In this document: positions 1,277 through 23,277 of the stretch, in pieces
Layout: each line of letters opens with the position of its first letter
Numbering within the stretch: the first letter of the stretch is position 1
From: Polyangiales bacterium
Lineage (GTDB): Bacteria > Myxococcota_A > Polyangia > Polyangiales > Ga0077539
Assembly (NCBI GenBank): GCA_044229975.1
Contig: JBGARZ010000023.1
Span: forward strand, 88,188 to 152,187
DNA: 64,000 nt
Direction: 5' to 3'
Made by a program: the position numbers and the translations under genes
The notes under the pieces: model-generated
Told to the model about the DNA's origin: nothing
The model's database searches: none
Seen by the model: only the letters and a program-made list of their open reading frames with translations

Positions 1277-2608
1277 CTAGTGGCCCGCGTGAGCCGAGCC
1301 CGGCGGTGGGCTCGGAGCGGGCTCGGGACGGGCGCCGCGATCGCTCGGTGTGGCGCCGGCCGCCGGCGGCGTCTGTCCGCCGTGGGCGTGACCCGTGCCG
1401 CCCCCCGAGGCGCGCAGACGGCTCTCCGAGTCGATCAGGAACACCCCCGAAGCAACGATCGACTCCCCTTCGCTCAGCCCCTCGCGCACCTCCACGCGGT
1501 CGTCGAGCCGGGTCCCCAGCGTGACGGCTCGGGGCACGAAGCGCCCGTCACTCCCGACGACGAAGACGTGCTGGGTCTCGCCGGTGTCCACGACGGCGTC
1601 CCGCGGGACCGTCAGCGCCCCGTGAGCGCTCACCTGGAAGTTGGCTTCACCGTAGAGGCCGGGGCGCAGGGAGCCGTCGTCGTTCGGGACCACGAAGCGC
1701 GCGCGCAAGGTCCGCGTGCGTTCGGTGAGGGTGGGGTAGAGGAAGTCGATTCGCGCCTCGAAGGGTGCCCGGCCCGAGGCCGCGAACTCGAGCCGCGCCG
1801 GCGTGTCCCGCTGAATCGCGGGGATGTCGCCTTCGGGGACCTCGGCCAGCACCCAGACGCGGGAGAGGTCCGCGATCGTGAGCAGCTCCGTCGAGGGGTC
1901 CACCGCGGTCCCGACGGCGATCCCGCGGTGGAGCACCACGCCCGTGCGGGGAGCCACCACGGTGACGGTGCGCAGGGGGCGGCCCGTGCTCTCGACCTGG
2001 GCGAGCTCCGCCGCGGTCATCCCGAGCACCGCGAGGCGGCTGCGCGTGGCCGCGAGGAGGCCCTGCGTAGCCGCCGCAGTGGTCGGGTGGGCGAGGTTCT
2101 GGCGCAGCGCGATGAGCTCGTTCTGCGAGGCCAGCAGCTCCTGCGAGAAGATGGCGGCGAGCGGTGCGCCGCGCGTGACGCGCTGCCCGGTGGTGTTGAC
2201 GTAGAGCCGCTCGATCCACCCCGCCACGCGGGTGTGAACGTGCGAGACCCGCGACTCGTCGAGCGCCACCGTCGCGACGGCGCGCACGGGCCGACCGATG
2301 TCCTCCCTCGCGACGCGGGCGACGCGCACGCCGATCGCGTCGAGCTGCCCCCGGGGGACCGCCACCGGCACGCGCCCCGGTACGGTGTGGGCCGCGTGCG
2401 GATCGACGGCCTCGTTCCCGTCGAGGGCGAGTGGCGCGGCGGTGCGCCCTCCGGGCGGATTCGCCGGCGCCATCTCGTGGTGCAGCGAGAAGGGCCAGGC
2501 CCGGCGGAGGTGCTGCGTGATGAGCGACCCCACCATGAGGACGACCACGGCGAGCGTGGCCACCGAGAGCGTGCGCCATCCCCGCGCCACCAGCGGGTGA
2601 GCGATCAT
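1277..2608 (-). CDS. cusB: RND periplasmic adaptor, CusB-like
   Basis: From MIAHPLV: N-terminal TM, VHTRVAGWIERLYV, SQELLASQNEL, IADLSRVWVLAEV, FLYPTL, LRPGLYG, SGVFLIDSESRL; His-containing tail; ATGA overlap with the upstream TolC stop. Confidence 0.9.
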   Translation of the reverse strand: MIAHPLVARGWRTLSVATLAVVVLMVGSLITQHLRRAWPFSLHHEMAPANPPGGRTAAPLALDGNEAVDPHAAHTVPGRVPVAVPRGQLDAIGVRVARVAREDIGRPVRAVATVALDESRVSHVHTRVAGWIERLYVNTTGQRVTRGAPLAAIFSQELLASQNELIALRQNLAHPTTAAATQGLLAATRSRLAVLGMTAAELAQVESTGRPLRTVTVVAPRTGVVLHRGIAVGTAVDPSTELLTIADLSRVWVLAEVPEGDIPAIQRDTPARLEFAASGRAPFEARIDFLYPTLTERTRTLRARFVVPNDDGSLRPGLYGEANFQVSAHGALTVPRDAVVDTGETQHVFVVGSDGRFVPRAVTLGTRLDDRVEVREGLSEGESIVASGVFLIDSESRLRASGGGTGHAHGGQTPPAAGATPSDRGARPEPAPSPPPGSAHAGH

Positions 2609-3894
2609 CGCGGCCCGCCGCCGAAGCGCCCGACGGTGCGCTCCAGCCGTGCGCGGACGACGCCGACATCGACCTCCGCCATCACCCGCTCCTCCTGCGT
2701 CATGCGCAGCGACACGATGGCTTCGATCACCGCGACGAGCGGCGCCTGGCCGGCGGCGTAGGCCGCGATCGTCGCCCGCAGGGTCTGGACCGCCTGCGGC
2801 TCGACCTCGTCGCGCAGGGCGGCCGACCGCACGCGGGCGGCGTCGAGCGAGCCGAGGGCGGCGCGCACCTCGCCTTCGATCATCGTGCGCGCCCCGCGCA
2901 GCTCCGCGTCTGCCATCGTCCCCATGGCGCGGGCCTCGGCGACGCCCGCCGCGAGCCGCGCGCGCCAGATCGGAACGGTCACCCCCACCATCACCATCAC
3001 CCCCGGGCCGTCGCTCATGGTGGTCGAGGCCCCCGCGCGCACGAAGGCCATCGGCGCGTACATCGCGCGCATCGCCTCGACCTCCGAGCCGTACTGGCGC
3101 CGCGAGGCCTCGACCGACGCGAGCTCGGGCCGCGAGCGCAGGGCCTCGGCGACCAGCGCCTCCGCGGCCGCCGGGGGCTCGTCGGCCGCGGCGGCGAGCT
3201 CCGGCACCGGGAGGTCGCCCGCGCGGCCGAGGGCGGCGTTGAGCATCGCCTCGGCGGCGACCGTCTGGCCCCGCAGCGCGGCCCGCCGGGTGGCCTGCCG
3301 GCGCGTCTCCGTGTCGGCGCGCAGGACGTCCGACTGCGGCGCCGCGCCAGCGGCGTAGCGCGCGGTGGCGATGCGGGTGAGGTCCCCGGCGAGCGCGACC
3401 TGGGCGTCGAGCACCGCGGCCATCCGACGCAGGCCCGCGAGCATGTGGAAGGCCCGGAGCGCCTCCGCCGTCACGTCGAGCACGGTCTCGCCCGCCCGCA
3501 GGCGTCGCGCGTCGGCGGCGGACTGGGCCGCGCGCCGACGGGCGCCCAGGACGCCGGAGAGCGGGAACTCCTGCTGCACCATCACGCTCCCGTCGAAGCC
3601 CATGCCGGAGAAGGGGATGTGGTCCGCCGACACCATCACCATGGGGTCGGGCAGCGATCCGACGATGGCCGGTCGCTGTCCGAGCGCCCGCGCCTCGGCC
3701 AGCGCGGCCGTGATCTCCGCCCGGTGCGCGCCCGCGTATTGGACCACGCCGACGACATCGAGCGGGCTCGGCAGCGTGTCGCGAGGCTGGCCGTGGGCGC
3801 CCTCCGTCGCGAGGAGCGTGATCACCGCGGCGATGAGTCCGGCCCACGCCGTCGCGACGCGCCGATCACGGGCGCCTTGAGGTTGGCCATTCAC
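2605..3894 (-). CDS. TolC-family outer-membrane efflux protein (CusC-like)
   Basis: Signal peptide, LPDPMV and QQEFPLSG motifs, RYAAGAAPQSDVLRA, VTVPIW; GGAGG RBS before GTG 3894; first gene of the CBA operon. Confidence 0.85.
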   Translation of the reverse strand: MNGQPQGARDRRVATAWAGLIAAVITLLATEGAHGQPRDTLPSPLDVVGVVQYAGAHRAEITAALAEARALGQRPAIVGSLPDPMVMVSADHIPFSGMGFDGSVMVQQEFPLSGVLGARRRAAQSAADARRLRAGETVLDVTAEALRAFHMLAGLRRMAAVLDAQVALAGDLTRIATARYAAGAAPQSDVLRADTETRRQATRRAALRGQTVAAEAMLNAALGRAGDLPVPELAAAADEPPAAAEALVAEALRSRPELASVEASRRQYGSEVEAMRAMYAPMAFVRAGASTTMSDGPGVMVMVGVTVPIWRARLAAGVAEARAMGTMADAELRGARTMIEGEVRAALGSLDAARVRSAALRDEVEPQAVQTLRATIAAYAAGQAPLVAVIEAIVSLRMTQEERVMAEVDVGVVRARLERTVGRFGGGPR

Positions 3895-4244
3895 GGGAGA
3901 TCCTCCCTCGAGCGTTCGATGGGGATCACTCCCCCGCGTTGCGCCGATGACGTCCCCTTGAGCAACCCACGCGCCACGTCCATGGGCGCGGAGGAATCGG
4001 TGGAACTTCGCCTGCCCGGAACTCGATCTCGGTGTCCGGCGCACAAGCTGCGCTCGGGCGAACGGATTGCACCATCGACGACCGCCGGACGTCCGCTCGG
4101 GCGCGGGGCGGAGATTCGCGCGGTGTAATGCCGATGGCACTGGTCCGTCTGCGGCTCCAGAGACGGAAGCCGGTGACAGATCGCAGCGACGGGGCACGCC
4201 GCCTGCTCTGCGGACTGCCGGGCGACCGCCCCGCGAGGCACTCC

Positions 4245-6623
<2,379 letters not shown>

Positions 6624-6709
6624 GGTCGATGCGGCTGTAAGGCACCGAGGGGGCCTGCGTCTGCCTTGATGCGAGCCAAAGCAACGCGGCCCGCAGGAGC
6701 GACGAAACC

Positions 6710-6934
6710 ATGAACTCCAACGAGACCCTGCTCGACGTCCGCGGCATGAACTGCGGCTCGTGCGTCCGCCACATTTCCCAGGCACTCGACGCGCTCGACG
6801 GCGTCGAGGAGGTCCACCCCTCGCTGCCCGACAAGACCGTCCGCGTCCGGCACGACCCGGCGCGGGTGAGCGCCGAGCAGCTCGCCGGCGCGCTGACCGC
6901 GAAGGGCTACCCCGCCGCCGCGCGCGCCGCGTGA
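6710..6934 (+). CDS. copZ: Copper chaperone (HMA domain)
   Basis: GMNCGSC motif in a 74-aa HMA fold; AGGAG RBS. Confidence 0.9.
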   Translation: MNSNETLLDVRGMNCGSCVRHISQALDALDGVEEVHPSLPDKTVRVRHDPARVSAEQLAGALTAKGYPAAARAA

Positions 6935-7036
6935 ATCGACCCCGGCCGGGTCACAGGTCGGCCGCGCAGCCGTAGAGCCTGAGCCCGCTTCGGCTGTAAT
7001 CCCCACCCACCACGCGCGTCTGCCGCGACGAAGCCC

Positions 7037-7297
7037 ATGAACCTCCTGATCCCACGCGTTCTCATCCTGGTCAGTGCGACCGCCCTCCCGCTCGGGTGCG
7101 GGGGCCGCGAGGTCCCTGTGCGCTTCGCCGAGCAGTCGGCGCTCTCCTCGGGCGCGCGCGAGGCGCCGGTTGGCGACCCCACGGTGGCCCTCACGGGCGA
7201 CCCGCCCCTCCCGGGCGAGCCCACCGGGGCCTGGACCGGCCTCGCCGCGGACGCGGGTGCTCCCCCGACCGGAGGAGGCCACGTCCATGCGCACTGA
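7037..7297 (+). CDS. Small lipoprotein with His tail
   Basis: Lipobox-like PLGC, C-terminal HVHAH; overlaps the next start codon. Confidence 0.65.
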   Translation: MNLLIPRVLILVSATALPLGCGGREVPVRFAEQSALSSGAREAPVGDPTVALTGDPPLPGEPTGAWTGLAADAGAPPTGGGHVHAH

Positions 7298-8705
7298 GCG
7301 CCTCCTGCCGGCCGCGCTAGCGCTGCTGCTGCCGCTCACCGGATGCGCGACGACGTCGTTCTCGTCCGACCTGCGGCGCGTCGAGCAGCTCTCCGGCGCG
7401 TCCATCCCCCTACGCGTCGCGGACGGCCCCCCCGAGGATCACGACCCGGCCGTCACGCGGGAGGTCCTCGCCCGCCCGCTCACGGCCGACGCCGCGGTGG
7501 GGATCGCGTTACGCAACAACCGCCACCTGCGCGCGTCGCTGCGGGACCTCGGCGTGGCGCGCGGCTGGCTCGCCCAGGCCGGCACGCTCCCCAACCCGGC
7601 GGTCGAGTTCGACGTGCGCTACCAGACCGACCGCTCGCAGCCCCTGCAGGGCGACGTGCGCCTGGAGTTCGGGCTGACGCGGGCGATCCTCACGACGCAG
7701 CGGGCGGGCCTCGCCCGGGCGGAGCTGGAGACGGCGCAGGCGCGCGTCGCGGGGACGGTGCTGGAGACGGGCTACGCGGTGCGCGCGGCCTTCTACGCGG
7801 TGCAGGCCTCCGAGGAGCGGCTCGCGACCGCCCAGCAGGCGCTGGACGCCTTCGCGGCCGCGCGCGACGCCGCCCGCGCGCTCCACGCGGCGGGCAACCT
7901 CCGGGCCCTCGACTTCTCGGTGCAGGAGGCGGCCTACGAAACCGCGCGCGTCACGGTGGCGGAGATCGAGCTGGAGCGCTTCGACCGCCGCGAGCGTCTG
8001 CAGCGCCTGCTCGGGCTCCACGGCGACGCCACCGAGTGGACCCTCGCGGAGGGCTTACCCCCCGCGCCCGAGGCCCTCTCGCTGGAGGCGATGACCGAGA
8101 CGCGCGCCCTCGAGGCCAGCCTCGACCTCGCGGCCCAGCGCGCCAACCTCCAGGCCCTCGCCCGGCGCGTCGGCCTCAGCCGGGCCGAGGGGTGGCTGCC
8201 CGACATCACGGTGGACGCGCACGCCGAACAGGACGGCAACTCCGTGGAGGTCGGCGGCGGGGCGCGCGTCACGCTCCCGATCTTCGACCAGCGGCGGGGC
8301 GCCACAGCCGCCTATGGGGCGCAGTTCGACGCCGCGCTCGAGCGCTACTACGCGAGCGCCGTGGACCTGCGCTCGGCCCTGCGCGAGACCCGCAACCGCC
8401 TGCGCTCCGCGCACGCCCGCGCGCGGCAGTACGACGCCGTGATCGTGCCGGCGCGCGAGCGCGTGCTGCGCGAGACGCTGCTCCAGTACAACGCGATGCA
8501 GGTCTCGGTGTTCCAGCTGCTCCAGGCCCGGCGCGAGCTCCTGGACGCCACGCTCCGGCGCGCCGAGGTCCGCCGAGAGTTCTGGAGCGCCACCGCGGGC
8601 ACCACCACCCTCTTCGCGGGGCGCCAGGTGGGCGCGTCCGACGGCACCGAATCCATGTCCGCCGCGTCGATGGACGCGTCGGGCGCATCCGCAGGAGGTC
8701 ACTGA
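7287..8705 (+). CDS. TolC-family outer-membrane protein (copper-oxidase associated)
   Basis: Lipobox LTGC; LPNPAV, TLPIFDQ and LQYNAMQVSVFQLL motifs; GGAGG RBS. Confidence 0.85.
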   Translation: MRTERLLPAALALLLPLTGCATTSFSSDLRRVEQLSGASIPLRVADGPPEDHDPAVTREVLARPLTADAAVGIALRNNRHLRASLRDLGVARGWLAQAGTLPNPAVEFDVRYQTDRSQPLQGDVRLEFGLTRAILTTQRAGLARAELETAQARVAGTVLETGYAVRAAFYAVQASEERLATAQQALDAFAAARDAARALHAAGNLRALDFSVQEAAYETARVTVAEIELERFDRRERLQRLLGLHGDATEWTLAEGLPPAPEALSLEAMTETRALEASLDLAAQRANLQALARRVGLSRAEGWLPDITVDAHAEQDGNSVEVGGGARVTLPIFDQRRGATAAYGAQFDAALERYYASAVDLRSALRETRNRLRSAHARARQYDAVIVPARERVLRETLLQYNAMQVSVFQLLQARRELLDATLRRAEVRREFWSATAGTTTLFAGRQVGASDGTESMSAASMDASGASAGGH

Positions 8706-8709
8706 AGCC

Positions 8710-10083
8710 ATGGACCGACGATCCTTTCTCCATGCCAGCAGCGCGGCGACGGCGCTCGGGTTGATGACCCGCGCGGAGCGGGCCGAGGCGCAGACCCACG
8801 AGGGCCACGGCGCGCCCGGGGGCCCGACGCAGGGACAGACGGCGGGGCAGACGCCACCCCCGCCAGCGACCTCCGCCGCGATCGTGCGCCGCTTCCCTGC
8901 CGGGCAGCCTGGGGTGACGGTGCCCAACGGGGGCACGCTGCCGCTGCGCGTGGTCGATGGGGTGAAGGTCGGCCACCTCGTGGTCGAGTCCTTCCCCAAC
9001 GAGTTCAGCCCCGACCTCACCGCGGAGGTGTGGGGCTACAACGGCACGACGCCGGGGCCGGTGATCGAGCTCGTCGAGGGCGACCGGCTGCGGATGTACG
9101 TCACCAACCGGCTGCCCGAGCCGACCACGGTGCATTGGCACGGCATCGTCCTGCCCAACGGGATGGACGGCGTCAGCGGCCTGAACCAGCGCCCGATCCC
9201 GCCGGGCGAGACGTGGGTGTACGAGTTCACGCTCCGCCACCCCGGCACGTTCATGTACCACTCGCACTTCGACGAGATGACGCAGATCGCGCTCGGCGCA
9301 GTGGGCATGATCGTCGTGCATCCGCGCCAGGCGAGGGGCCCGCGGGTCGATCGCGACTTCGTGCTCATGGCGCACGAGTGGAAGATCGAGGCGGGCGCCC
9401 GGCGGCCCGACCCCAACGCCATGAACGACTTCAACGTCCTCACCTTCAACGGCAAGGCGTTCCCGAGCACCGCGCCGCTGCTGGTGGGCAAGGGCGAGCG
9501 GGTGCGCATCCGCCTGGGCAACCTCGGCCCCATGGACCACCACCCGATCCACATCCACGGCCTGTGGTTCCACGTCACGGCGACGGACGGCGGCTACGTG
9601 CCCGCGAGCGCGCAGCGGCCCGAGACGACGGTGCTGGTGCCCGTCGGGGCCACGCGGGTGATCGAGTTCGTGCCGCCCGAGTCGGGCGACTGGGCGATGC
9701 ACTGCCACATGACCCACCACGTTATGATGCAGATGGCCCACGGCCTGCCGAACATGGTCGGCATGGACCCGCGCGTGCTGGAGCGCCGCATGAGCCGCTC
9801 GATGCCGGAGTACATGACCATGGGCCACCGGGGCATGGGCGGCATGGGTGAGATGCGGATGGAGATCCCGCCCAACAGCGCGCCGATGCGCGGGGGCCCC
9901 GGGCCCCACGCGTACATCGACATGGGCGGGATGTTCACCGTGCTCAAGGTGCGCGACGACGTGGCGACGGCCGACCCCGCGGGGTGGTACCAGGCGCCCG
10001 CCGGGACGGTGCCCACGGTGGCCGACGAGGCGCGGCTGCGCGCCGATGGGATCGACGTGGCGCGGACCTGGCGGCGCGGCTGA
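8710..10083 (+). CDS. Tat-exported multicopper oxidase, Met-rich
   Basis: MDRRSFL Tat motif; HWHG, YHSH, HPIHIHG, HCHMTHH copper motifs. Confidence 0.92.
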   Translation: MDRRSFLHASSAATALGLMTRAERAEAQTHEGHGAPGGPTQGQTAGQTPPPPATSAAIVRRFPAGQPGVTVPNGGTLPLRVVDGVKVGHLVVESFPNEFSPDLTAEVWGYNGTTPGPVIELVEGDRLRMYVTNRLPEPTTVHWHGIVLPNGMDGVSGLNQRPIPPGETWVYEFTLRHPGTFMYHSHFDEMTQIALGAVGMIVVHPRQARGPRVDRDFVLMAHEWKIEAGARRPDPNAMNDFNVLTFNGKAFPSTAPLLVGKGERVRIRLGNLGPMDHHPIHIHGLWFHVTATDGGYVPASAQRPETTVLVPVGATRVIEFVPPESGDWAMHCHMTHHVMMQMAHGLPNMVGMDPRVLERRMSRSMPEYMTMGHRGMGGMGEMRMEIPPNSAPMRGGPGPHAYIDMGGMFTVLKVRDDVATADPAGWYQAPAGTVPTVADEARLRADGIDVARTWRRG

Positions 10084-10156
10084 GCGGGGCGGCGGGCCGG
10101 TGAAGAGCTGCAGGCCCTGACGGCGCCGCGTCAGGGCCGCGCTGGGAGGGGATCCG

Positions 10157-10729
10157 TCAGGGCAGGACGCGCACGACGCCGGCCATCCCGACGTGCCCGT
10201 GGGTGTTGCAATGGAACGGGTAGAAGCCGGCGCCCGCGAACGTCACCGTGTAGGTGTCCCCGGCACGCTGCGCCTCGATGGGGCTGGGGCTAGTGGCGCC
10301 CGCGCTCGACCCGTGCGGGACGCCGGGGTTCAACGGGTGGGTGGTGAGGCTCATGGCGAAGGTCACCGATTGGCCCGCGCGGATGGTGAGGCAGCGCGGG
10401 GTGTAGCCCGTGGTGCCGCGCGGCACCACGGTGCGCTCGGCGGCGTCGGCGGAGCGGTCCACGTAGGCCGAGGCCGCGCAGTCGTTGAGCAGGGGCACCA
10501 TGGCGGGTGCGTCCGCCGCCGTACCGGCGTCGGTCCCGGCGTCCTGCTCGGCCGGTGCGACGTCGGCGACGGGCGGTTGGTCGGTCGCGGGGCCGACGTC
10601 CGTCGTCCCGACGTCGGCCGCATCGTGGCCGTCGTGGGCGGACGCGTCGCCGGTCGCGTCGTGGGCCATGTCACCGCAGCCGACAAGCAAAGCAAGCAGT
10701 GGGAGAACGATGGTCAGACGGGCGTGCAT
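10157..10729 (-). CDS. Cupredoxin (plastocyanin/azurin-like) lipoprotein
   Basis: Lipobox LVGC; THP and FHCNTHGHVGMAGVV type-1 copper ligands. Confidence 0.85.
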   Translation of the reverse strand: MHARLTIVLPLLALLVGCGDMAHDATGDASAHDGHDAADVGTTDVGPATDQPPVADVAPAEQDAGTDAGTAADAPAMVPLLNDCAASAYVDRSADAAERTVVPRGTTGYTPRCLTIRAGQSVTFAMSLTTHPLNPGVPHGSSAGATSPSPIEAQRAGDTYTVTFAGAGFYPFHCNTHGHVGMAGVVRVLP

Positions 10730-10764
10730 CGGTGGGGTCCTTCCGGGTCACAGAGGGGCGTGGC

Positions 10765-12189
10765 TCAGGGCTCCACGCGCACGGTGGCCATCATCCCGTG
10801 CTCGATATGCTCGAGGATGTGGCAGTGGTACATCCAGTGGCCGGGGCGCTCGTCGGGGCGGAACGCGATGCGCACGCGCTCCTTGCCCCGGAGCTGGATC
10901 GTGTCCTCCCACGACCGCTCGCCCTCGGGGGCGCCGTCGCGCGAGACCACCTGGAAGAAGAACCCGTGCAGGTGGAAGGGGTGCTCCATCTCGCTCGCGT
11001 TGACGAGGTCCCAGACCTCGGTGACGCCGACGCGCGCGACGACGTCGGGCACGTCGGGGTAGGACGCGTCGTTGATGGTGAAGACGACCCGCTCCGCGTC
11101 GCGGTCGATGTGCTCGTTGAAGGTCACGGTGCGCGGCGCGACGCCCGCCGTGGCCAGCGGCTCGACCCGCGGGCTGGGCGCGGGCGTGGCGAGCGCCGGC
11201 AGCGCCGGGTCGGGCGCGTAGCGGAGCCGTAGGATGTCCGACGCCTCGGTGAGGCCGGCGCCGTGGCCGCGGGCGTAGGGGAGGTTCTGGAGGACGGCCG
11301 TCGCACCCGGGTCGCCGGTACCGTCCACCAGGACGTCGAGGCGGTCCCCAGGCACCAGGAAGAGCTCGTCGGAGGCGCGCGGCGTCTCGACGGGACCACC
11401 GTCGGTGCCCACCACGGTGAAGCGGTGTCCCGGCAGGGCGAGGCGGTAGAAGCGTGCGCTGCCCGCGTTGACCACGCGCCACCGCTGCCGCTGGCCCGCA
11501 CGGATGGGGAGTTCCGCGCCCGCGCGGCCGTTGACCAGGGCGACGGCCCCCTCGCGGCCGGTGTGCTGCTCGACGAGGTCCCCGGTCGGCGCGATCTGGC
11601 CGTCGGCGCCGAGCAGCAGGTCGTCGAGCACCAGCACGCCCTCGGCGTCGGCGCGCGGCTCGCGGTCGCCCCGCACCACGATCGCGCCGTAGAGGCCGCG
11701 CTCCATCTGCACGCTCTCAGTGACGTGCGGGTGGTACCAGAAGGTCCCCGCGTCGGGCACGGTGAAGCGGTACTCGAAGGAGGCTCCCGGGGCGACAGGC
11801 GGCTGCGAATGGGGGCTTCCGTCCATGGAAGCGGGTACCCGCACGCCGTGCCAGTGGATGGTCGTGGGCTGGTCGAGGCGGTTGGTGAAATGCACGACCA
11901 CCGTGTCGCCCGCGCGGGCCTCGATCGTCGGCCCCGGCACCGACCCGTTGTAGGTCATCGCCCGGACGCGACGACCCGGCGCGTACTCCCACTCGCCGAA
12001 GCGCGCCTCAAGGTCGATCTCGACGACGCGGGGATCGGGGTTGCGATCGACGGCGGGGGCGACCCGGAGCACCGAGGCCCAAGGGTCCGGGCCGGTGCGC
12101 GGGGTGGCCGACGTCGGGGGCGCGTCGCCGCAACCGCCGACGAGGAGCGCGGCAGAGAGGCTACAGAGGAGGTGTCGGTTGGACGGCAT
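10765..12189 (-). CDS. Multicopper oxidase lipoprotein (three-domain)
   Basis: Lipobox VGGC; HWHG, WYHPH, HPFHLHG, HCHILEHIEHGMM. Confidence 0.93.
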   Translation of the reverse strand: MPSNRHLLCSLSAALLVGGCGDAPPTSATPRTGPDPWASVLRVAPAVDRNPDPRVVEIDLEARFGEWEYAPGRRVRAMTYNGSVPGPTIEARAGDTVVVHFTNRLDQPTTIHWHGVRVPASMDGSPHSQPPVAPGASFEYRFTVPDAGTFWYHPHVTESVQMERGLYGAIVVRGDREPRADAEGVLVLDDLLLGADGQIAPTGDLVEQHTGREGAVALVNGRAGAELPIRAGQRQRWRVVNAGSARFYRLALPGHRFTVVGTDGGPVETPRASDELFLVPGDRLDVLVDGTGDPGATAVLQNLPYARGHGAGLTEASDILRLRYAPDPALPALATPAPSPRVEPLATAGVAPRTVTFNEHIDRDAERVVFTINDASYPDVPDVVARVGVTEVWDLVNASEMEHPFHLHGFFFQVVSRDGAPEGERSWEDTIQLRGKERVRIAFRPDERPGHWMYHCHILEHIEHGMMATVRVEP

Positions 12190-12278
12190 GATCACCTACG
12201 GGGGCTGAGGAGCGGGGCACGCGAGCAGGCACCGACCGGCCTTCTAGTCGCCCGAACCGAAGGTGTGACCGAGGAACC

Positions 12279-13613
12279 TCACCGGGCGTTGCCGTTCCGG
12301 GCGTCGCCGCCGGTGACGGGCCATGCCGACGGGGCCGCGCCGGCGGACTCGGTCGCCACGACGAGCAGGCGGTCGTCGTCGGTGTGCAGGGCGAGGTCGC
12401 CGTTGGGCGAGAGCACGGGCGCCGAGGCGTTGGCGCCCTCCGGGATCGCGAGCGTCCACCGCTGGCGGCCGTCCTCCCCGACGGCGTAGAGCGCCCGGCC
12501 CACCGCGAGGTAGATCACGCTCGCGCGCCCGACGGCGTGCGTGGCGAAACGCTGGTAGTCGGTGCGGGTGGCGCTGGCACCGAAGCCCCAGGCGCGCGAG
12601 CCGTCGCGGCGGACGGCCACCAGCTCGCCGCTCGCGCCGCCGCCGCCACGGTGGACGTTCAGGTAGACGTAGACCGTGCCGTCGGCGCCGATCACGGGCG
12701 CGCCCATGAGGAGATCGACCTGGCCCCGCGAGGAGCGGGCGAGGTTTACCCGCCAGATCAGCCGGCCCGTCCGCAGTTCCCGGGCGACGAGCACATAGGA
12801 ACTCAGGCCGAAGAACGCGATGTAGATCCGGTCGCCGTCGATCGCGGGCGGGAGCGCGTGGCGCAGCGTCCCATCGAGGATCTCGTAGGGTTCGGACCAG
12901 AGCCTGCGGCCGTTGGTGAGGTCGAGCGCGGTGTCGAGGCAGCCGACGGTCGTGCCCGCAACGGCGCACTCGTTCACGTTGGACCAGTCCGGCGCGTCGA
13001 GGGTCTGGCGGCCCGCGAGCTCGAAGCCCGCGAGGCGCCCCACGGTCGTCCTCGCGCCCTGGGTTACCAGCACCGGGCCGCGCCCCGGCGGCAGTCCGAC
13101 GAAGCGCACCACGGCATCGACCGTCGGGTACGGCGGCCGGGCCTCGCCGTTCCGCCCGAAGCGCCACAGACCGCGCGCGGCGGTGTCGCCGTACATGCTC
13201 GTGAGCAGCACGTCGTCGCCGGTGGAGAGGCGGACCTCGCCCCCAAGCACGCGTCCGCCCGCGCCGGGGCGCACCGCCGGCGACCGCCAGCGCTCCCGGC
13301 CGCAGGCATCGAGGGCGACCACGCCGCGCCCGCGGTCGGAGGTCTCGTACGGCGCGTAGATCGTCCCTTCGGCGTCGATGGCGACGTGCCCGGTGACGCC
13401 GACGACGGCGAAACGAACGCTCCCGACGGGCGTGTCCCGACCGCAGCGCGGGGGCTGGAGTGGGACGTCCTCGGGGCCGGCGTCGTGTCGATCGAGGGCG
13501 TCGCAGGGCACGTCCACCGCCGCGTCGAACAGCTCATCGAGGCCGGTGCGCGCGCCGCACGCCGAGGCCACACACGCGAGGAACAGGTGGCGTTGGAAGG
13601 AGGGGCCGCGCAC
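12279..13613 (-). CDS. PQQ-like beta-propeller lipoprotein
   Basis: ASACGARTGL lipoprotein start; repeated AID/GADGTVYV, A..DG...W units; WP...GDARN tail; start codon uncertain. Confidence 0.7.
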   Translation of the reverse strand: MRGPSFQRHLFLACVASACGARTGLDELFDAAVDVPCDALDRHDAGPEDVPLQPPRCGRDTPVGSVRFAVVGVTGHVAIDAEGTIYAPYETSDRGRGVVALDACGRERWRSPAVRPGAGGRVLGGEVRLSTGDDVLLTSMYGDTAARGLWRFGRNGEARPPYPTVDAVVRFVGLPPGRGPVLVTQGARTTVGRLAGFELAGRQTLDAPDWSNVNECAVAGTTVGCLDTALDLTNGRRLWSEPYEILDGTLRHALPPAIDGDRIYIAFFGLSSYVLVARELRTGRLIWRVNLARSSRGQVDLLMGAPVIGADGTVYVYLNVHRGGGGASGELVAVRRDGSRAWGFGASATRTDYQRFATHAVGRASVIYLAVGRALYAVGEDGRQRWTLAIPEGANASAPVLSPNGDLALHTDDDRLLVVATESAGAAPSAWPVTGGDARNGNAR

Positions 13614-13900
13614 CCGCTGAGGGTAAGGGCGATCCCGTCGCCCGAGCGTCGATCTTCGCTTGCGACGATTGTATCGGCGCGCTGAACAATGCCGGCGAGG
13701 AGCGTCCGCCCTCCGTGTTTCCACGCCTTGCTTCCGCGCCCACGCGCTCACGCGCATGGGATGGCCGATCGAGCGGATCGCAGGGGCGGTTTGTTGGAGC
13801 CTCCGGGTCACGGACGGGATGGACACGGCTAGTACCTGCCCAATAGGACCCTACGCGACGGCCGACCGGCCGCGGAGCGTCCCAAGGAGCGAGTGACCCG

Positions 13901-14326
13901 ATGAACAACGAAACCCGCGCGAAGCTTCTGGCGATGGTGTCTGCCGCTCTGGGCGGCGCGGCCCTTGAGGGCTGCGCGAGTAATCCGCCAGCGATGGCGC
14001 AGCCCCCGACGAGCGCGAGCGCTCAGTCGGCCACAGGGCAGGCCGGCAGCTGCAGTGCTGCGATGGCCCAGAGCGGGAACTGCGGCGCCAACATGGGCCA
14101 CGCCCCGGGGGCAGCTCCGGCGGCCCCTCAGGGGGCGGCGACTGGGCAGGCGATGAGCTGCGGACACGACGGGAACTGCGGCGCGCACATGGCCGCGCCG
14201 ACCGCGCCGGCCGCTCCGGGGACGACCGCGGCGCAGCCGACTGCACCGCCCGCCCCGGCCCCCACGACTCCCGCCGCGGCACCTCCTCCCGCGGCCCCCG
14301 CTCGCCCTCACGTCCACGCCCACTGA
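13901..14326 (+). CDS. Putative MNIO RiPP precursor, Cys-motif lipoprotein
   Basis: Signal with LEGC lipobox; two SC..GNCGA(N/H)M repeats; Pro/Ala tail ending HVHAH; 3 nt upstream of the DUF692 gene. Confidence 0.75.
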   Translation: MNNETRAKLLAMVSAALGGAALEGCASNPPAMAQPPTSASAQSATGQAGSCSAAMAQSGNCGANMGHAPGAAPAAPQGAATGQAMSCGHDGNCGAHMAAPTAPAAPGTTAAQPTAPPAPAPTTPAAAPPPAAPARPHVHAH

Positions 14327-14329
14327 GCG

Positions 14330-15154
14330 ATGGCGCGCGTTGAGGGGGTCGGCCTGGGGCTGCGGGCGCCGCTGGTCGGTGACCTGATGACCCGGGCCCC
14401 GCCCTCGCTGCGCTGGGTCGAGGTCTCCCCCGAGAACCACATGGGCCGCGGAGGCTTCTTCGAGCGCATGCTCGCCGACGCGCGCGGGCGCTTCCCGGTG
14501 GTCACCCACGGCCTCAGCCTGGGCCTCGGCGATCGGGCCCCGCCGGAGCCCGCCTTCCTCCGGGCGTTGCGTGCCTTCCTGGAGGAAGTGGGAACGCCCT
14601 GGCACAGCGACCACCTCTGCTTCGGGTCCGTGGACGGCGCGCACCTCCACGACCTGCTGCCGCTGCCCTTCACCCGCGAGAGCGCCCGCGTGGTGGCGGA
14701 CCGCGTGCGCCTGCTGGAGGACGCCCTGGGCCTCCCGATCGCCGTCGAGAACATCTCCTGGTACGCCCACCCCGGCGAGGCGGAGATGGGCGAGGCGGAC
14801 TTCCTCGGCGAGATCGTCGCGCGCTGCGACGCGCGGGTCCTGCTCGACGTGAACAACGCCTTCGTCAACGCCCGCAACCACGGCACCGACGCGCGGGATT
14901 TCCTCCGGCGCGTTCCCGCCGAGCGTGTTGTGCAGATCCACGTCGCGGGGCACTTCACCGCCGCGGACGGCCTCCACATCGACACCCACGGGGAGCCCGT
15001 CTGCGAGGAGGTCTACGGCCTGCTCGAGTTCGCCCTCTCCCGCACTGGTCGGGTGCCAGTGCTCCTCGAGCGCGACGGCGGCTTCCCGCCCTTCGACGAG
15101 CTCGCGGCGGAGGTCGAGCGGCTCGACGCGATCCTGCGACGGGCCGCGCCGTGA
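14330..15154 (+). CDS. DUF692 multinuclear non-heme iron oxidase (MNIO, BufB/MbnB/TglH-like)
   Basis: GLGLR, EVSPENH, HGLSL, SDHLC, DLLPLP, ENIS, LLDVNN, IHVAGH, IDTHG, LLERD motifs. Confidence 0.95.
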   Translation: MARVEGVGLGLRAPLVGDLMTRAPPSLRWVEVSPENHMGRGGFFERMLADARGRFPVVTHGLSLGLGDRAPPEPAFLRALRAFLEEVGTPWHSDHLCFGSVDGAHLHDLLPLPFTRESARVVADRVRLLEDALGLPIAVENISWYAHPGEAEMGEADFLGEIVARCDARVLLDVNNAFVNARNHGTDARDFLRRVPAERVVQIHVAGHFTAADGLHIDTHGEPVCEEVYGLLEFALSRTGRVPVLLERDGGFPPFDELAAEVERLDAILRRAAP

Positions 15155-15894
15155 GCGACCTCGACGCGCGGCAGCGGGCGATCGCCCGCGTGTGCCTCGG
15201 CGAGGAGCCGCCGGCCGACGCACTGGCCCTCCTGGGGGGCGACCCGCGGCGGTGGCAGGTCTACCGCGACCTGGTCCGCACGCGGCTCTGGCGCGCCCTG
15301 CTGGAGGCCCTCCCGCGGACCTACGCGGCGGCGGGCCCCGATCGCTTCGGGGGCTGGTTCACGCGGTTCCTCGACGAGGCGCCGCCGCGCACGCGCTACG
15401 TGCGGGAGGTCGCCCCGGCCTTCGGGGCGTGGGTGCGCGCGGCCGAGGGGGACGCGCTGTCGCGCCCCGCGCCGTGGCTGCCGGACGCCCTCACGCTCGA
15501 CCTCGCCGAGCACCGGGTCGCGCTCTCCGACGCGCGCCTCGACCCGTCCCGCGTGGCGCCGTTCTCGATGGACCTCCCGGCGGCCCTGGACCCTGCCCAC
15601 TGCCGCGCACGGCTGTGGTGGGCGATGGACGGCGCGTCGGCCATCCATCGCCCCCGCGCGCTCCTCGTCCACCGTCACCCGGCGACGGGCCGCGTCGAGA
15701 CGATGGAGCTCGACGCGCTCGACGCGGAGGTAGTGGACGCGATGGACGACGAGGCGACGCCCGTAACGGCGGCGGTCCTGTCGGTGCTGAACCGCCACGG
15801 TCTGGCCGCCGACGCCGCCTTCTCGGGCCGCCTCGCCGGCCTGCTCGCCGACCTGATGGAGCGGGGCGTCTTGCTAGGCTCTCGACGGCCCTGA
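15151..15894 (+). CDS. DUF2063/HvfC/BufC-like MNIO partner protein
   Basis: RWQVYRDLV...ALPRT...FTRFL...PP N-terminal pattern; GTGA overlap with DUF692. Confidence 0.8.
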   Translation: MSDLDARQRAIARVCLGEEPPADALALLGGDPRRWQVYRDLVRTRLWRALLEALPRTYAAAGPDRFGGWFTRFLDEAPPRTRYVREVAPAFGAWVRAAEGDALSRPAPWLPDALTLDLAEHRVALSDARLDPSRVAPFSMDLPAALDPAHCRARLWWAMDGASAIHRPRALLVHRHPATGRVETMELDALDAEVVDAMDDEATPVTAAVLSVLNRHGLAADAAFSGRLAGLLADLMERGVLLGSRRP

Positions 15895-16004: not shown

Positions 16005-17216
16005 TCAGGGGAGCCCGCCGAGCCGCTGCAGGGCCGCGATCATCTCGCCGACCTCACGCGCCTGAGCGTCCATGACGTCCGCCGCGAGGTCGGCGAGCTC
16101 GGCGCGGCGGAGCACCGGGAGCGCGCGGTGCGCGGGCTCGAGCCCGCCGCCGTGATGGGGGATCATCCCCTCCAGGAACATCCGGTCGAGCGCGCGGCCC
16201 GAGAGGGAGCGCATGGCGGCCATGTCGCGTTCCATGTGCGGGTCGGGGATGGGGGGCGGCTCCGGCGCGACGCCGAGCGCGCGGCGGGCGTCCTGCATCA
16301 CGGTGATCTCGCGGGTCTGCGCCTCGCGCATGCTCGCGGCCATGCGGCGCACCTCCGGGTCGGCGCCGCGGGCGACCTCCATCTCGGCCATCATCACCGC
16401 GCCGCGGTGGTGGGGGATGAGCATGTCGGTGAAGCGCACGTCGTCGGTCGGGGTGAAGGGCGCGCGCGGGTCGGGCGGCGGCCGGATCGCCGCCGGGTCG
16501 ATCGCGCGCGACTCCGCTGCGAGCGCCGCGCGGGCGTCGCCCGTGAGCCGGTCGAGCAGGGCGTACATCTCCCCGACCTCCTCGGCCTGAGCGACGTAGA
16601 TCGAGCGCGCGATGTCGCGCAGGTCGGCGCGCCGCAGGTGCGGCAGGGCGCGGTGGGCGGCCGGGAGGCCACCGCCGTGGTGCGGGATCATGTGGACCAG
16701 GAACGCGCGGTCGAGCGCCGAGCCGGAGAGCGACGCGAGCCGGGCCATGTCCGCCTCGCCCGTCGGGTCGTCGATCGGGGGGTAGTCCCCCACGCCCGTC
16801 AGCTCCTCGCGCGCGACGCGCAGGAGGTCCAGCTCGCGCGCCTGGGCGTCGCGCATGTGCTCCGCCATCCGACGGACCTCGGCGTCCTCGCCGCGCTCAA
16901 GGACCATCTCCGCCATCTCAATGGCCATGTGGTGGTGCGGCTTGAAGAAGTCGATGAACTCGACGTCCCCGAGCGGGGTGTACGGGCCCCGCGGGTCGGG
17001 CCTCGCCTCGTCCGTCGGCGTCGCAGGGCCCGCGTCCCCGGGCCCGGGTCGGCCGGCGTCCGCCGCGGCGCCCGCATCCGCCACGACGGCCGCGTCCGTG
17101 TCCCCGTGAGGGCGTCCGTGGGAGAGGGCCCGGAACCACTCCTCCCAGGGACAGCCGGGCAGCGCGGCGAGGGCGGCCGCGAGGAGCACGCCGCGAAGAA
17201 ATCGACTCTGGTGCAT
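16005..17216 (-). CDS. Lipoprotein with two DUF305 (CopM-like) domains
   Basis: LPGC lipobox; four (M/K)xPHH motifs in two copies of D..F...M..HH..A..MA / LDR.FL..MIPHHGGG. Confidence 0.88.
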   Translation of the reverse strand: MHQSRFLRGVLLAAALAALPGCPWEEWFRALSHGRPHGDTDAAVVADAGAAADAGRPGPGDAGPATPTDEARPDPRGPYTPLGDVEFIDFFKPHHHMAIEMAEMVLERGEDAEVRRMAEHMRDAQARELDLLRVAREELTGVGDYPPIDDPTGEADMARLASLSGSALDRAFLVHMIPHHGGGLPAAHRALPHLRRADLRDIARSIYVAQAEEVGEMYALLDRLTGDARAALAAESRAIDPAAIRPPPDPRAPFTPTDDVRFTDMLIPHHRGAVMMAEMEVARGADPEVRRMAASMREAQTREITVMQDARRALGVAPEPPPIPDPHMERDMAAMRSLSGRALDRMFLEGMIPHHGGGLEPAHRALPVLRRAELADLAADVMDAQAREVGEMIAALQRLGGLP

Positions 17217-19826: not shown

Positions 19827-19938
19827 GGACTAGATATCTGGAACTGTTGACCTACTAGTCCACTGCGTGTAAGCTTCTTTTTAGCGAGTTTTTGTAGAAA
19901 CGGACTAGATGCCAGACATAGAGAAAGAATTAGTCCAC
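19827..19938 (+). promoter_or_regulatory. Sigma70-type promoter overlapped by two copies of a bipartite inverted-repeat operator
   Basis: TTGACC (19847-52), 17 bp, TAAGCT (19870-75); GGACTAGAT-N20-TAGTCCAC at 19827-19863 and again at 19902-19938. Confidence 0.7.
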
Positions 19939-21021
19939 GTTGCGCGGCTCGCCCTTGAGGGGCGACGCCCCGACCTCGTCGCCGTTGTCCGGCGCTCCCT
20001 CCGGTCCCTCGCAGGGCGACGGCCCGACTTGCAGGAGCAGATCAACGCGGTGCTGGCTCTCGCGTCGGCCAACCCCCCGATCCGCGAGGCGTCCAGGCTC
20101 CCCATCCCCGCGGACAACGACAGCCGTGCCGAGCTCATCCGCCGCGATGACCAGCCGGAGGTGGCGATCGAGCCGACGTGGCCTGCGGCCGTCGAGAAGG
20201 CGCTCGGGGAGTTTTTGCTGGAGCGTGACCGGGAGGCGGAACTGCGCGCGGCTGGTCTGTCCCCCGTCCGCTCGCTGCTTTTCATCGGCCCGCCCGGTGT
20301 CGGCAAGACCATGGCTGCGCACTGGGTGGCCCAGCGTCTCGGGCGGTCGCTCCTCACGCTCGACCTGGCGGCCGTGATGAGCTCCTACCTGGGGCGCACG
20401 GGGCTCAACTTGAAGGTCGTGTTGGACTACGCACGGCACCAACACGCGGTGCTGCTGCTGGACGAGTTCGACGCCATCGCCAAGCGCCGCAACGACGACG
20501 CGGAGGTCGGGGAGCTCAAGCGCCTCGTCACGGTGCTCCTCCAAGCCATCGACCAGTGGCCGAGCGACGGGGTGCTGCTGGCGGCGACCAACCACCCTGA
20601 GTTGCTTGATGCCGCTGTGTGGCGCCGCTTCGACCGGGTGATCGAGTTCCCGTGTCCGACCGTCCCGGAGATTCGGTCGTCCGTGGAGAGGCTCCTTGGC
20701 GCGCCGGCGGCCTCGGACCTCGCCGAGGTCCTCGACACGCTGGCCGCCCTTCTCGGCGGCCAATCCTTCGCGGACGTCGTGCGGCATGTGAACTCCGCGC
20801 GCCGCGCGTCGGTGCTGCGGGGCATCCCGCTGAGCGAGGCGCTGACCGAGCTGACGAGCGAGCTCGTCCGCGCGGCGCCACTGGAGCGAAAACTACAGTT
20901 CGCCCGCGAGCTCGAACGCCAGAAGCGCTCGCAGCGGACGATCTCCCAGATCACGGGGCTCTCCCGCGACACGATCCGAAAGCACCTGGGCAAGGGCGCC
21001 CCGACGGGCGGTCGGAAATAG
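19909..21021 (+). CDS. AAA+ ATPase (IetA-like) with C-terminal HTH
   Basis: GPPGVGKT Walker A, LLLDEFD Walker B, AATNHPELLDAAVWRRFD SRH; C-terminal SQRTISQITGLSRDTIRKHL. Confidence 0.9.
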   Translation: MPDIEKELVHVARLALEGRRPDLVAVVRRSLRSLAGRRPDLQEQINAVLALASANPPIREASRLPIPADNDSRAELIRRDDQPEVAIEPTWPAAVEKALGEFLLERDREAELRAAGLSPVRSLLFIGPPGVGKTMAAHWVAQRLGRSLLTLDLAAVMSSYLGRTGLNLKVVLDYARHQHAVLLLDEFDAIAKRRNDDAEVGELKRLVTVLLQAIDQWPSDGVLLAATNHPELLDAAVWRRFDRVIEFPCPTVPEIRSSVERLLGAPAASDLAEVLDTLAALLGGQSFADVVRHVNSARRASVLRGIPLSEALTELTSELVRAAPLERKLQFARELERQKRSQRTISQITGLSRDTIRKHLGKGAPTGGRK

Positions 21022-21036
21022 AAGGGTTGAAGGACC

Positions 21037-23277
21037 ATGGCGCGCGAGAACAACTTTTTGCTCGGTCGCGGTGAGCGCCTCACCGAGCCCGTCGAAGTGC
21101 CCTCGGGCGGAGGCGACAAGAACCCTCCCTACGACTTCGACAACGCCCGCACCCGCGTGGCGCAGAGGCTCGCTGTTGCGGGGGACACGATGCGGTCGAT
21201 GCCAAGAGACGCCTGCCCGCGCGGCGAGGCGGTCGCGATCCTGACCATGCACCCCCGCTACATTTCGAAGAGCGATTTTCCCAACGAGTTGCTGATCGCC
21301 GCCGGCGTGCGGGCGGTGGGCAGCCGGTCGCGCGCCGTCACGCCCGAGCGGTGGGGCGTGCAGCTCCATCCGGTGCGCGCCGTCACCGAGGAGATCTTCA
21401 TCGCGGGACCCCGCGACAACTTCACCCGGTGGGCGGCGCAGGTGAGCGCGTGGACCGAGCAGACCCGCGGCGCGCGCCACCTGACCCACGTCGAGGACCT
21501 GGCCGCCTTCACGGCGTCCGAGAAGCTCCGCGCGATCCCTGCGAACCGGGACGAGGTGCTCCTCGAGGTGGTGCTCCACAACGCCGACGACGAGGGCATC
21601 GTCGAGGCTTTCGAGGCCTACGCGCTGCGCCGCGGGGCGCGGCCGCTCATGGAGCGCCTGCGCCGGGTGCAGGGCCTGGGGTTCGTGCCGGTGAGGGCGG
21701 CGGCCGAGAGGGTCGGCGAGTTGGCGGCGTTCACGTTCGTGCGCGTCGCGCGCGGGATGCCCTCGCTGCGCCCTTGCGAGCCGGGGGTGCTCCGCGTGGT
21801 GGGCGGGTTCCCGGTCAACCTGCCGACGGAGGGCCCCCTCGACAACGAGGTCCGCGCGGTGGTCTTTGACGGCGGCCTGCCGAAGTCCGAGCGCGCGCGG
21901 CTCGCCCCGTGGGTCACGTACGTCGAGCCGGCGGGCATCGGCCCCGCCGTGCCTCAGTACGAGGCCCACGGCCTGAGCGTGACGGCGGCGCTGGCCTTCG
22001 GCCCCCTCTCGAAGGCGGGTCCGCTGCCGCGACCGCTCTGTCACATCGACCATGTGCGCATCCTCGACGACGGCACGGGCACGACCCCGAGCGACCTCGA
22101 GTGCGTGGACGCCCTCGACCGGATCCTGGGCTTCCTGGAGGCGCACCCGGCCGAGTACGGGTATGCCAATATCAGCGTGGGTCCGAACATCGCCGTGGCA
22201 GACGACGAGGTCACCCTTTGGACCGCCTCGCTGGACGAGCGGTTCGCTCACGGCGCGATCCTCGCGACCATCGCCGCGGGCAACGACGGAGAGCTCGACG
22301 CGGAGAGCGGCGCCAACCGGGTCCAGCCGCCCGCGGACGGCGTGAACGTGCTGGCCGTCGGCGCGTCCCACCGGCCCGGGTCCGCCTGGCAGAGGGCGGC
22401 CTACAGCTGCGTCGGCCCGGGGCGCAGCCCCGGCGTGGTGAAGCCCGATGGCGTGGCGTTCGGCGGCTCCGACGAGGAGCCCTTTATGGTGCTCGGACCC
22501 GGCCTCCGCGCGCGCGGCGTCCAGGGCACCAGCTTCGCGTCGCCCTTCGCGCTGCGCAACGCGCTGTCCGCGCGCGTGCAGATCGGCAGCGACCTCGCGC
22601 CCCTCACCGCCCGCGCGCTGCTGATCCACCGGGCGGACCCGGCCAAGCACCCCCAGCCCCACGTCGGCTGGGGTCGCTTCGAGTCGGACTCATCGATGTT
22701 GGTCACCTGCGACGACGACGAGGCGGTCGTGGTGTTCCAGGGCGAGCTCCCTGTGAAGGAGCACCTTCGGGCGCCGATCCCCCTCTCGCAGGTGGCCTTG
22801 GCGGGGAAGGTCACGCTCTCGGCGACCCTCCTGATCGCGCCCGAGGTCGATCCGGGCTACCCCGGCGTCTACACGCGCAGCGGGCTGGAGGTCTCCTTCC
22901 GCCCGCACCGGGACAAGTTCAAGCGGTACGACGACGGCTCGACGTCCGCTCACCCCAAGACGGACTCGTTCTTTTCGGCGGCGCACCTATACGGCGTGCC
23001 CGAGTACGAGACCCGCGAGGATGGTCACAAGTGGGAGCCGGTGCTGCGCAGCTCCCGGACGTTCCTCGCGTCGTCGCTCAAGGAGCCGTGCTTCGACATC
23101 TACTACCACCACCGCAGCAAGGGCACGGCGGCCGCCGAGCAGCATCCAATCCCCTACGCGCTCGTGGTGAGCGTGAAGGCCCCGAAGGTGGCCGACCTCT
23201 ACAACCAGGTCGTGCGCGCCTACGCGAACATCCTCGTGCCGATGCGGCCGCGCGTGCAGATCCCCCTGTCGGCCTAG
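21037..23277 (+). CDS. S8 subtilisin-like serine protease (IetS-like)
   Basis: VFDGG (Asp), HGLSV (His), AAGNDG oxyanion, GTSFASP (Ser), KPD; no signal peptide; follows the AAA ATPase. Confidence 0.9.
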   Translation: MARENNFLLGRGERLTEPVEVPSGGGDKNPPYDFDNARTRVAQRLAVAGDTMRSMPRDACPRGEAVAILTMHPRYISKSDFPNELLIAAGVRAVGSRSRAVTPERWGVQLHPVRAVTEEIFIAGPRDNFTRWAAQVSAWTEQTRGARHLTHVEDLAAFTASEKLRAIPANRDEVLLEVVLHNADDEGIVEAFEAYALRRGARPLMERLRRVQGLGFVPVRAAAERVGELAAFTFVRVARGMPSLRPCEPGVLRVVGGFPVNLPTEGPLDNEVRAVVFDGGLPKSERARLAPWVTYVEPAGIGPAVPQYEAHGLSVTAALAFGPLSKAGPLPRPLCHIDHVRILDDGTGTTPSDLECVDALDRILGFLEAHPAEYGYANISVGPNIAVADDEVTLWTASLDERFAHGAILATIAAGNDGELDAESGANRVQPPADGVNVLAVGASHRPGSAWQRAAYSCVGPGRSPGVVKPDGVAFGGSDEEPFMVLGPGLRARGVQGTSFASPFALRNALSARVQIGSDLAPLTARALLIHRADPAKHPQPHVGWGRFESDSSMLVTCDDDEAVVVFQGELPVKEHLRAPIPLSQVALAGKVTLSATLLIAPEVDPGYPGVYTRSGLEVSFRPHRDKFKRYDDGSTSAHPKTDSFFSAAHLYGVPEYETREDGHKWEPVLRSSRTFLASSLKEPCFDIYYHHRSKGTAAAEQHPIPYALVVSVKAPKVADLYNQVVRAYANILVPMRPRVQIPLSA

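Follow-up and report, generated by a model that had tools for sequence, protein, structure and literature searches.

Overview of the operon

A three-gene operon was identified in the window, i.e., the whole 64,000-nt stretch of Polyangiales DNA analyzed here, and it probably makes a predicted membrane-anchored 5-thiooxazole copper chelator that would belong to a Ser-Cys branch in myxobacteria, sister to the EGKCG captophorins. The precursor, MNIO (DUF692), and DUF2063-like genes named in the preliminary description were all recovered as ORFs (Table 1), with a gap of 3 nt between precursor and MNIO and an overlap of 4 nt between MNIO and partner; besides the PF09836 match, the partner scored 26.5 bits against PF22106 (cut-off 27). 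The operon displayed the sequence features of the captophorin class: an MNIO with metal ligands and catalytic Asp, an adjacent DUF2063/RRE protein, and an upstream Cys-containing exported precursor. On these features it is likely a lipidated captophorin, yet it lay outside the HvfA and bufferin families by their own tests (see below). A scan for sigma-70 promoters and terminators found none, and metatranscriptome contigs spanned the precursor in 4/4 runs, the runs having been picked by this stretch, two of them being contig-identical and one also spanning distant genes.

Table 1. Features of the operon and its surroundings (positions are those of the window)
Feature	Position	Strand	Evidence
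CusB-like gene and outer-membrane efflux gene	within 1277..12195	-	profile scans
TolC-like gene	within 1277..12195		profile scans
P1B ATPase with CPC/YN/MxxSS	4032-6623		profile scan and motif
Multicopper oxidases, two	8710-10083 and 10765-12195		profile scans
Cupredoxin-like gene	10157-10729		profile scans
Beta-propeller gene without copper annotation, between copper genes and operon	12279-13826	-	
Shine-Dalgarno AAGGAG	13884..13889	+	11 nt 5' of precursor ATG; also in paralogues and orthologues
Precursor gene A, predicted lipoprotein, 141 aa	13901..14326	+	ORF
Signal peptide aa 1-24 and lipobox LEG↓C	13901..13975	+	sequence; N-terminus conserved across 67 precursors
Core repeat 1, ATGQAGSC-x7-GNCGANM, Cys51/Cys61	14030..14095	+	sequence
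Core repeat 2, ATGQAMSC-x3-GNCGAHM, Cys87/Cys93	14138..14191	+	sequence
Pro/Ala/Thr-rich tract, aa 98-136, 3' of cores	14192..14308	+	sequence
HVHAH tail	14309..14323	+	sequence
MNIO (DUF692) gene B, 274 aa	14330..15154	+	PF05114, 300 bits (cut-off 25)
DUF2063/RRE partner gene C (PME type 1), 247 aa	15151..15894	+	PF09836, 39.3 bits (cut-off 27.2)
CopM-family (DUF305) gene, convergent with operon	16005..17216	-	NF049983, 153 bits (cut-off 90)

In the proposed mechanism, B and C would bind A in the cytoplasm and form 5-thiooxazoles from as many as four of its core Cys residues by oxidation, each losing 4 Da; Sec would then export A, which would be cleaved after lipidation at Cys25 and, having no Asp or Lys at position +2, would not be retained in the inner membrane. 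Its place beyond that membrane would be the periplasmic face, the surface, or the matrix. The ring thiols would bind excess envelope copper with the aid, in the window copy, of its 6 His and 5 Met, and this capture would take place beside the ATPase, the Cus pump, and the oxidases. The window copy probably moved into the copper island and was re-tuned there, with a His tail gained and the SigF-like promoter not found.

Precursor of the window

The N-terminus of the precursor was basic and then hydrophobic and ended in the lipobox, with Cys25 as the predicted lipid-bearing residue followed by Ala at both +2 and +7; the features of lipoprotein signal peptidase II processing were thus present by a regex detector for the lipobox. 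The lipobox LEGC and the C-terminal HVHAH tail had been noticed before and were both confirmed. Each of the four core Cys residues had Gly or Ser right after it, Ser being found after Cys51. The repeats were present as previously described in that ATGQA and GNCGA(N/H)M each occurred twice, but the spacers were SC-x7-GNC and SC-x3-GNC instead of x4-7; the repeats were also evident in the DNA (26 nt at 77% and 23 nt at 91%), and repeat 2 was conserved better than repeat 1 and fitted the family pair SCG-x(1-3)-G-x-CG. The reported Pro/Ala stalk did exist as a tract (92% P/A/T), but it was located after the Cys repeats, so that it separates the repeats from the His tail and forms no stalk between anchor and cores.

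The precursor was a conserved coding gene, since comparison with a 90%-identical orthologue gave 16 synonymous versus 6 non-synonymous codon changes. Profile scans gave no Pfam or NCBIfam match for it, a homologue search returned 1 match only (an 81-aa fragment), and ESM Atlas placed it in unnamed clusters with Myxococcota as the commonest phylum (best score 0.91, low recognition). Ala at +7 is a matrix-export rule in M. xanthus as described in PMC3222651, and the window precursor fitted it, but Ala made up 37/117 of the mature residues and only 10/67 relatives had Ala at +7. The conserved signal peptide could conceivably act as the leader; that of bufferin 1 is described as dispensable under overexpression (PMC11626156).

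Precursor family among relatives

A total of 236 related loci were found. The best 80 of them, titled Myxococcota, Polyangiales, unclassified deltaproteobacterial or other MAGs, plus 60 stretches from relatives composed a first set of 89 distinct MNIOs (at least 47% identity), 79 of which had at least 500 nt upstream and were used for upstream counts. A second set was composed of 40 stretches hand-picked across families from matches to the partner profile, and it contained 35 new MNIOs. The precursor detector needed a lipobox and two Cys residues but no core motif.

An adjacent lipobox precursor was detected upstream of 67/79 MNIOs in the first set (one of the 67 looked frameshifted) and 34/35 in the second, against 86 positives among 4845 control windows scanned with the same detector; it was placed divergently in 3 further first-set loci. 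A lipobox precursor is thus nearly universal in the myxobacterial MNIO clade. The residue before the core Cys was Ser in 202/269 cases and Lys in 4/269 in the first set, and Ser in 89/134 and Lys in 2/134 in the second, giving the family motif x-[GA]-S-C-[GS]. The claim of a core unlike EGKCG therefore held. The further expectation that lipobox plus SC..GNCGA would be kept upstream of DUF692 homologues came true for the lipobox and for SC[GS], which was present in 65/67 family precursors, and failed for GNCGA, which was present in 6/67 and in 1 of the 34 second-set precursors; GNCGA was not supported as the defining core, EGNCGA also being carried by a non-lipoprotein Pseudomonas plasmid precursor of the HvfB clade. 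Cys pairs five residues apart dominated the inter-Cys spacings (75 of them), and 32/67 family precursors had a core without His or Met.

It is very improbable that the lipoprotein is no MNIO substrate at all, such that it would bind metal with unmodified Cys, His, and Met residues while the enzyme had another target. Such a division of labor would suit the 9/79 loci whose fetched stretch contained no lipoprotein precursor (a non-lipoprotein candidate being present in one of them) and one congener MNIO (82% identical) located directly after nrsF; it is opposed by the adjacency counts in the standard A-B-C order, by the three divergent precursors, and by the joint change of motif and enzyme pocket (see below).

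The profile of the DUF2063 partner matched 110/151 sampled genomes of the order (inferred to be Polyangiales; the tally includes one unpublished genome, G122), and it gave 29 matches in a 201-genome sample of the phylum, 4 of them outside the order. Predicted lipidated MNIO products would accordingly be the norm in one myxobacterial order, with the partner subfamily this widely distributed. No paper on a myxobacterial Ser-Cys lipoprotein family appeared among the literature matches listed, although supplementary tables may list members; the string "Myxococc" is absent from the main text of PMC12452194.

Several variations were observed around the family. Three loci (L017, L021, and L022) had the precursor on the opposite strand, and a YceI-like gene lay in the 1-2.7 kb that separated it from the MNIO; L017 additionally had a radical SAM gene after the precursor. 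A YceI-like protein adjoined the cassette in 15/89 loci (e.g., L145:9576-10283), and a peptidase M61-like gene stood beside it, up- or downstream, in 35/89 (e.g., L100:9528-10931), possibly by synteny of close relatives. The window genome had no orphan precursors beyond its three operons; it carried a fourth MNIO (L001, G000:C38:103852-104634; 38% identical) with a partner and without an upstream precursor, downstream of which lay a convergent Cys-rich lipoprotein-like ORF, and L001-like MNIOs recurred in relatives as a clade of their own. The myxobacterial MNIO loci L102, L104, and L131 had lipoprotein precursors of DAGC/AGCP repeats, and their enzymes fell outside the Ser-Cys clade. Outside the order, L311 (genome G210) had a precursor with many EGSC/EASC/AGCP repeats, and its MNIO had Met and Gly at the two pocket positions discussed below.

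Placement of the MNIO and its pocket

Gene B scored below the family cut-offs of HvfB (287.6 versus 360) and BufB (266.8 versus 310), and gene C scored below that of HvfC (52.7 versus 142). The residues H60, H95, E140, D173, H204, D218, H220, and E247 as well as the proposed base D249 were intact in gene B, and the metal ligands and proposed base were invariant in 56 aligned MNIOs. A tree was constructed from 85 MNIO rows (LG+G4), rooted on one distant Bacillus row after two long rows were dropped; its references were the MNIOs of annotated plasmids and of metagenome loci found via the pattern EGKCGEGKCG (38 full-length, 21 used). It contained a myxobacterial clade (44 rows, support 99/97) and an EGKCG (HvfB-type) clade (22 rows, 100/100) as sisters (98/89), with the window MNIO not nested inside the latter; the bufferin 1 and 2 enzymes fell outside this grouping, being represented by a thin sample of three and two enzymes, respectively. 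The earlier view of an MNIO plus DUF2063 RiPP system with a lipoprotein-type precursor, kin to HvfABC, was supported. Comparison with the HvfA and DUF2282 models had a divided outcome: the window precursor matched neither HvfA (NF050137 and NF050188) nor DUF2282, and 11/60 relatives' precursors, all from one close group, reached the HvfA-family domain cut-off of NF050137, while none reached NF050188. The family thus fell in part inside a characterized one, and its Cys motifs were conserved among neighbors.

FonB residues Arg16 and Phe250 have been linked to EGKCG recognition (bioRxiv 2025.11.18.689057). At the equivalent positions, matched to FonB numbering from the alignment pattern with FonB itself outside the alignment, EGKCG controls had Arg in 38/38 and Phe in 35/38, while the myxobacterial MNIOs had Arg in 2/89 and Phe in 0/89 (second set: 0/35 and 0/35), and the window MNIO had A13/G250. 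As far as sequences can tell, the loss of both pocket residues matches the Lys-to-Ser change before the core Cys. The Lys counts of the controls were given by construction, since control loci were chosen by the EGKCG motif; Ser preceded 18/272 of their Cys residues, and the above Pseudomonas plasmid precursor carried EGSCG in addition to EGNCGA. The predicted complex of B, C, and precursor residues 1-100 scored 0.62, against 0.55 for the control.

A different product is a rather improbable outcome of these changes, whether by participation of the Ser hydroxyl, by a cross-link of paired Cys, or by modification of one Cys per pair. The clade-wide difference at both pocket residues, the dominance of Cys pairs five residues apart, and the chemical diversity of MNIO subfamilies described in PMC13056109 would all agree with a product other than 5-thiooxazole; the FonB mutants R15A, R16A, F250A, and F250D, however, are reported to still yield 5-thiooxazole, FonBC is reported to accept Ala or Thr in place of Lys, with a small residue preferred after Cys, and all characterized MNIO-PME1 systems install 5-thiooxazole according to the same text (bioRxiv 2025.11.18.689057). 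EGSCG was moreover already present within the HvfB clade. Points against the preferred reading are that the FonBC variants named in that text include neither Ser nor Asn before Cys, and that FonBC tolerated only Ala after Cys, where Cys51 has Ser. Because the pocket mutants were active and Ala and Thr were tolerated for Lys, unchanged chemistry is the best reading. Under 5-thiooxazole formation, Ser-Cys would be an added substrate class, with a matching pocket change, beside the three captophorin groups named in published accounts so far (the DUF2282, the Lys-Cys, and the Cys-Lys group); the motif and pocket together allow the published model of selectivity to be tested directly, and current knowledge is not overturned by this family.

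Comparison with known systems

The Lys-Cys captophorins comprise oxazolin HvfABC, fontiphorin FonABC, and gonophorin (bioRxiv 10.1101/2025.11.18.689057; reassignment in 10.64898/2026.06.05.730506). The Ser-Cys family shared with them the A-B-C order, the DUF2063/RRE partner, an exported precursor, the sister MNIO clade, pentamer repeats ending in Cys-Gly, and the NF050137 matches of some relatives, but it displayed (i) Ser or Asn instead of Lys before Cys, (ii) an enzyme without the Arg16/Phe250 equivalents, and (iii) a lipoprotein signal, no DoxX, and an order-level myxobacterial range; the window genes also stayed below the HvfA, HvfB, and HvfC cut-offs.

NedABC of Neisseria dentiae likewise combines a lipoprotein signal and repeated Cys pentamers with an adjacent MNIO and partner; NedA is described as triacylated, its mass being shifted by −12 Da across three EGKCG motifs, and has a proposed role in membrane copper sequestration (PMC13056109). 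NedA belongs to an EGKCG-type, lipidated subset of the oxazolins, whereas the lipobox was nearly universal in the Ser-Cys clade, and the window copy differed from NedA by its P/A/T tract and His tail. With NedA lipidated and about 16% of Buf2 precursors being predicted lipoproteins (PMC12452194), the lipid anchor lost the novelty that had been ascribed to it.

Bufferins BufA1B1C1/BufA2B2C2 of Caulobacter vibrioides resembled the family in having MNIO plus DUF2063 and a SigF/NrsF link, and buf2 was further similar in its lack of DoxX and in some lipoprotein precursors (PMC11626156 and PMC12452194); in contrast, the window precursor was of low complexity and had neither DUF2282 nor the six-Cys Cys-Lys pattern, and the BufB cut-off was missed. 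Chryseobasin-type DAG-RiPPs (DybAH and myxobacterial ArlA) also have a lipobox precursor modified by an MNIO, as described in PMC13056109, but the window system had no CPxCG, scored 51 versus 600 bits against the ChrH model (ChrH/DybH), and was composed of a 274-aa MNIO without C-terminal bundle and with a DUF2063 partner.

DoxX was found in 0/89 first-set loci and 0/40 second-set stretches, compared with 12/38 short control loci, by a profile built from four proteobacterial sequences; both DoxX matches of the window genome were on other contigs. The absence of an adjacent DoxX, reported earlier, was hence reproduced, and it was not distinctive: Caulobacter buf2 has no DoxX, and DoxX is dispensable for buf1 (PMC11626156). 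Given a published lipidated EGKCG product and a dispensable DoxX in bufferin 1, neither the lipid anchor nor the missing DoxX is new.

Copper island

The operon was preceded by a series of copper-related genes (Table 1), among them a P1B ATPase whose CPC/YN/MxxSS pattern we take to be copper-type. The copper island of the preliminary description was therefore present in the window, but it did not extend to the family. A tblastn search with the copper proteins of the window (E 1e-6, flanks 0-8 kb, limits at which divergent or distant copper genes can be missed) found multicopper-oxidase neighbors in 5/89 loci only, namely that of the window and four from the same genus; a P-type ATPase match alone was found at four other loci, and the 35 second-set loci had no copper-protein match nearby (0/35). 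GNCGA(N/H)M and a His-x-His tail occurred together only in these five copper-island copies (5/67 precursors). The CopM-family gene was absent beside both orthologous island copies with downstream DNA.

One island paralogue of the window genome (on contig C31) had upstream DNA 85-90% identical to the window island, while its B and C genes resembled those of the non-island paralogue on C19, at 79-97% identity per 100 columns; a clade of island MNIOs was rejected (p-AU 0.005). Given the mosaic make-up of the C31 copy, independent origins of the island copies were considered and rejected. The five island copies are not independent and probably go back to one event, with one insertion plus recombination as the simplest account. 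The TolC-multicopper oxidase block (6554-10096 in the window) was present in three copies in the genome, including those on C31 and C27 (90% and 79% DNA identity). Further downstream in the window (19909-23277), an AAA-ATPase-like ORF was followed by a subtilisin-like ORF, as judged by eye from the translation; the pair presumably resembles ATPase/S8-protease defence or toxin-antitoxin pairs.

SigF-like promoter and regulation

A motif AAC-N15-18-[CA]GTA, mostly TG[AT]AACC...CGTA, was found upstream of 16/49 non-redundant precursors (shuffle mean 1.7, maximum 6 in 500) and of 13/34 second-set precursors. It resembled the Caulobacter SigF site GTAACC-N16-CGAA, the regulon of which holds two DUF692 operons and yedY (PMC3511200). 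An ECF sigma plus nrsF pair was located directly upstream in four congener loci, and the family appears to be ancestrally tied to SigF/NrsF stress control. In the window genome, the motif preceded the C19 precursor, an MsrP-like gene, msrA, a P460 cytochrome, and the third TolC-oxidase copper cluster, as found by a genome-wide scan that gave 39 matches without a chance estimate. The strict motif was absent upstream of all five island copies, the window copy included; the C31 copy had a relaxed match. A CorE site is given in PMC3107203 as AAC plus a G at −10 only, and a CorE-control check with AAC-N15-19-CG[TA] found no match upstream of the window precursor.

With the same chemistry, the main job could instead be the scavenging of oxidants (HOCl/peroxide) or a response to general heavy-metal stress under SigF/NrsF, copper being secondary and the island incidental; we regard this as unlikely. 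The SigF-like motif and the sigma-nrsF pairs point in that direction, as do the MsrP-like and MsrA genes behind the motif, which fit oxidant as well as metal stress, the response of Azospira SigF/NrsF to reactive chlorine through YedY (PMC4436054), and the lack of copper neighbors at most loci. Conversely, the SigF-controlled buf operons of Caulobacter are described as copper-induced and copper-protective (PMC11626156), so SigF control is no argument against copper; moreover, the motif also preceded a copper cluster, and the window copy had no motif and had extra His and Met.

A broader scenario can be sketched, which we consider speculative and unlikely: Polyangiales-type myxobacteria would have a near-core Ser-Cys class of lipid-anchored thiooxazoles, ancestrally serving SigF-controlled oxidant or general-stress defence and possibly of a chemistry unlike the Lys-Cys class, and one copy would have been recruited in this genus to the copper island, with SigF promoter lost and His/Met gained. 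The genome would then hold both states (C19 and C29) as a natural experiment on the purpose of captophorins; since the SigF-like promoter of one paralogue and the copper island around the other are found in a single genome, copper and oxidant roles can be compared.

The sigma-nrsF site itself was variable. The window genome had ECF sigma, nrsF, and mutS2 without an MNIO cassette there (L277, G000:C34:291745-296590), whereas congeners held the cassette at this place; in the congener locus L095, the site contained MNIO and partner without a precursor. Three same-genus precursors behind sigma-nrsF (L008, L009, and L010) had 9 core Cys, 6-8 His, and CACP, CPCA, and GGAC motifs, and they were far richer in metal ligands than the family norm.
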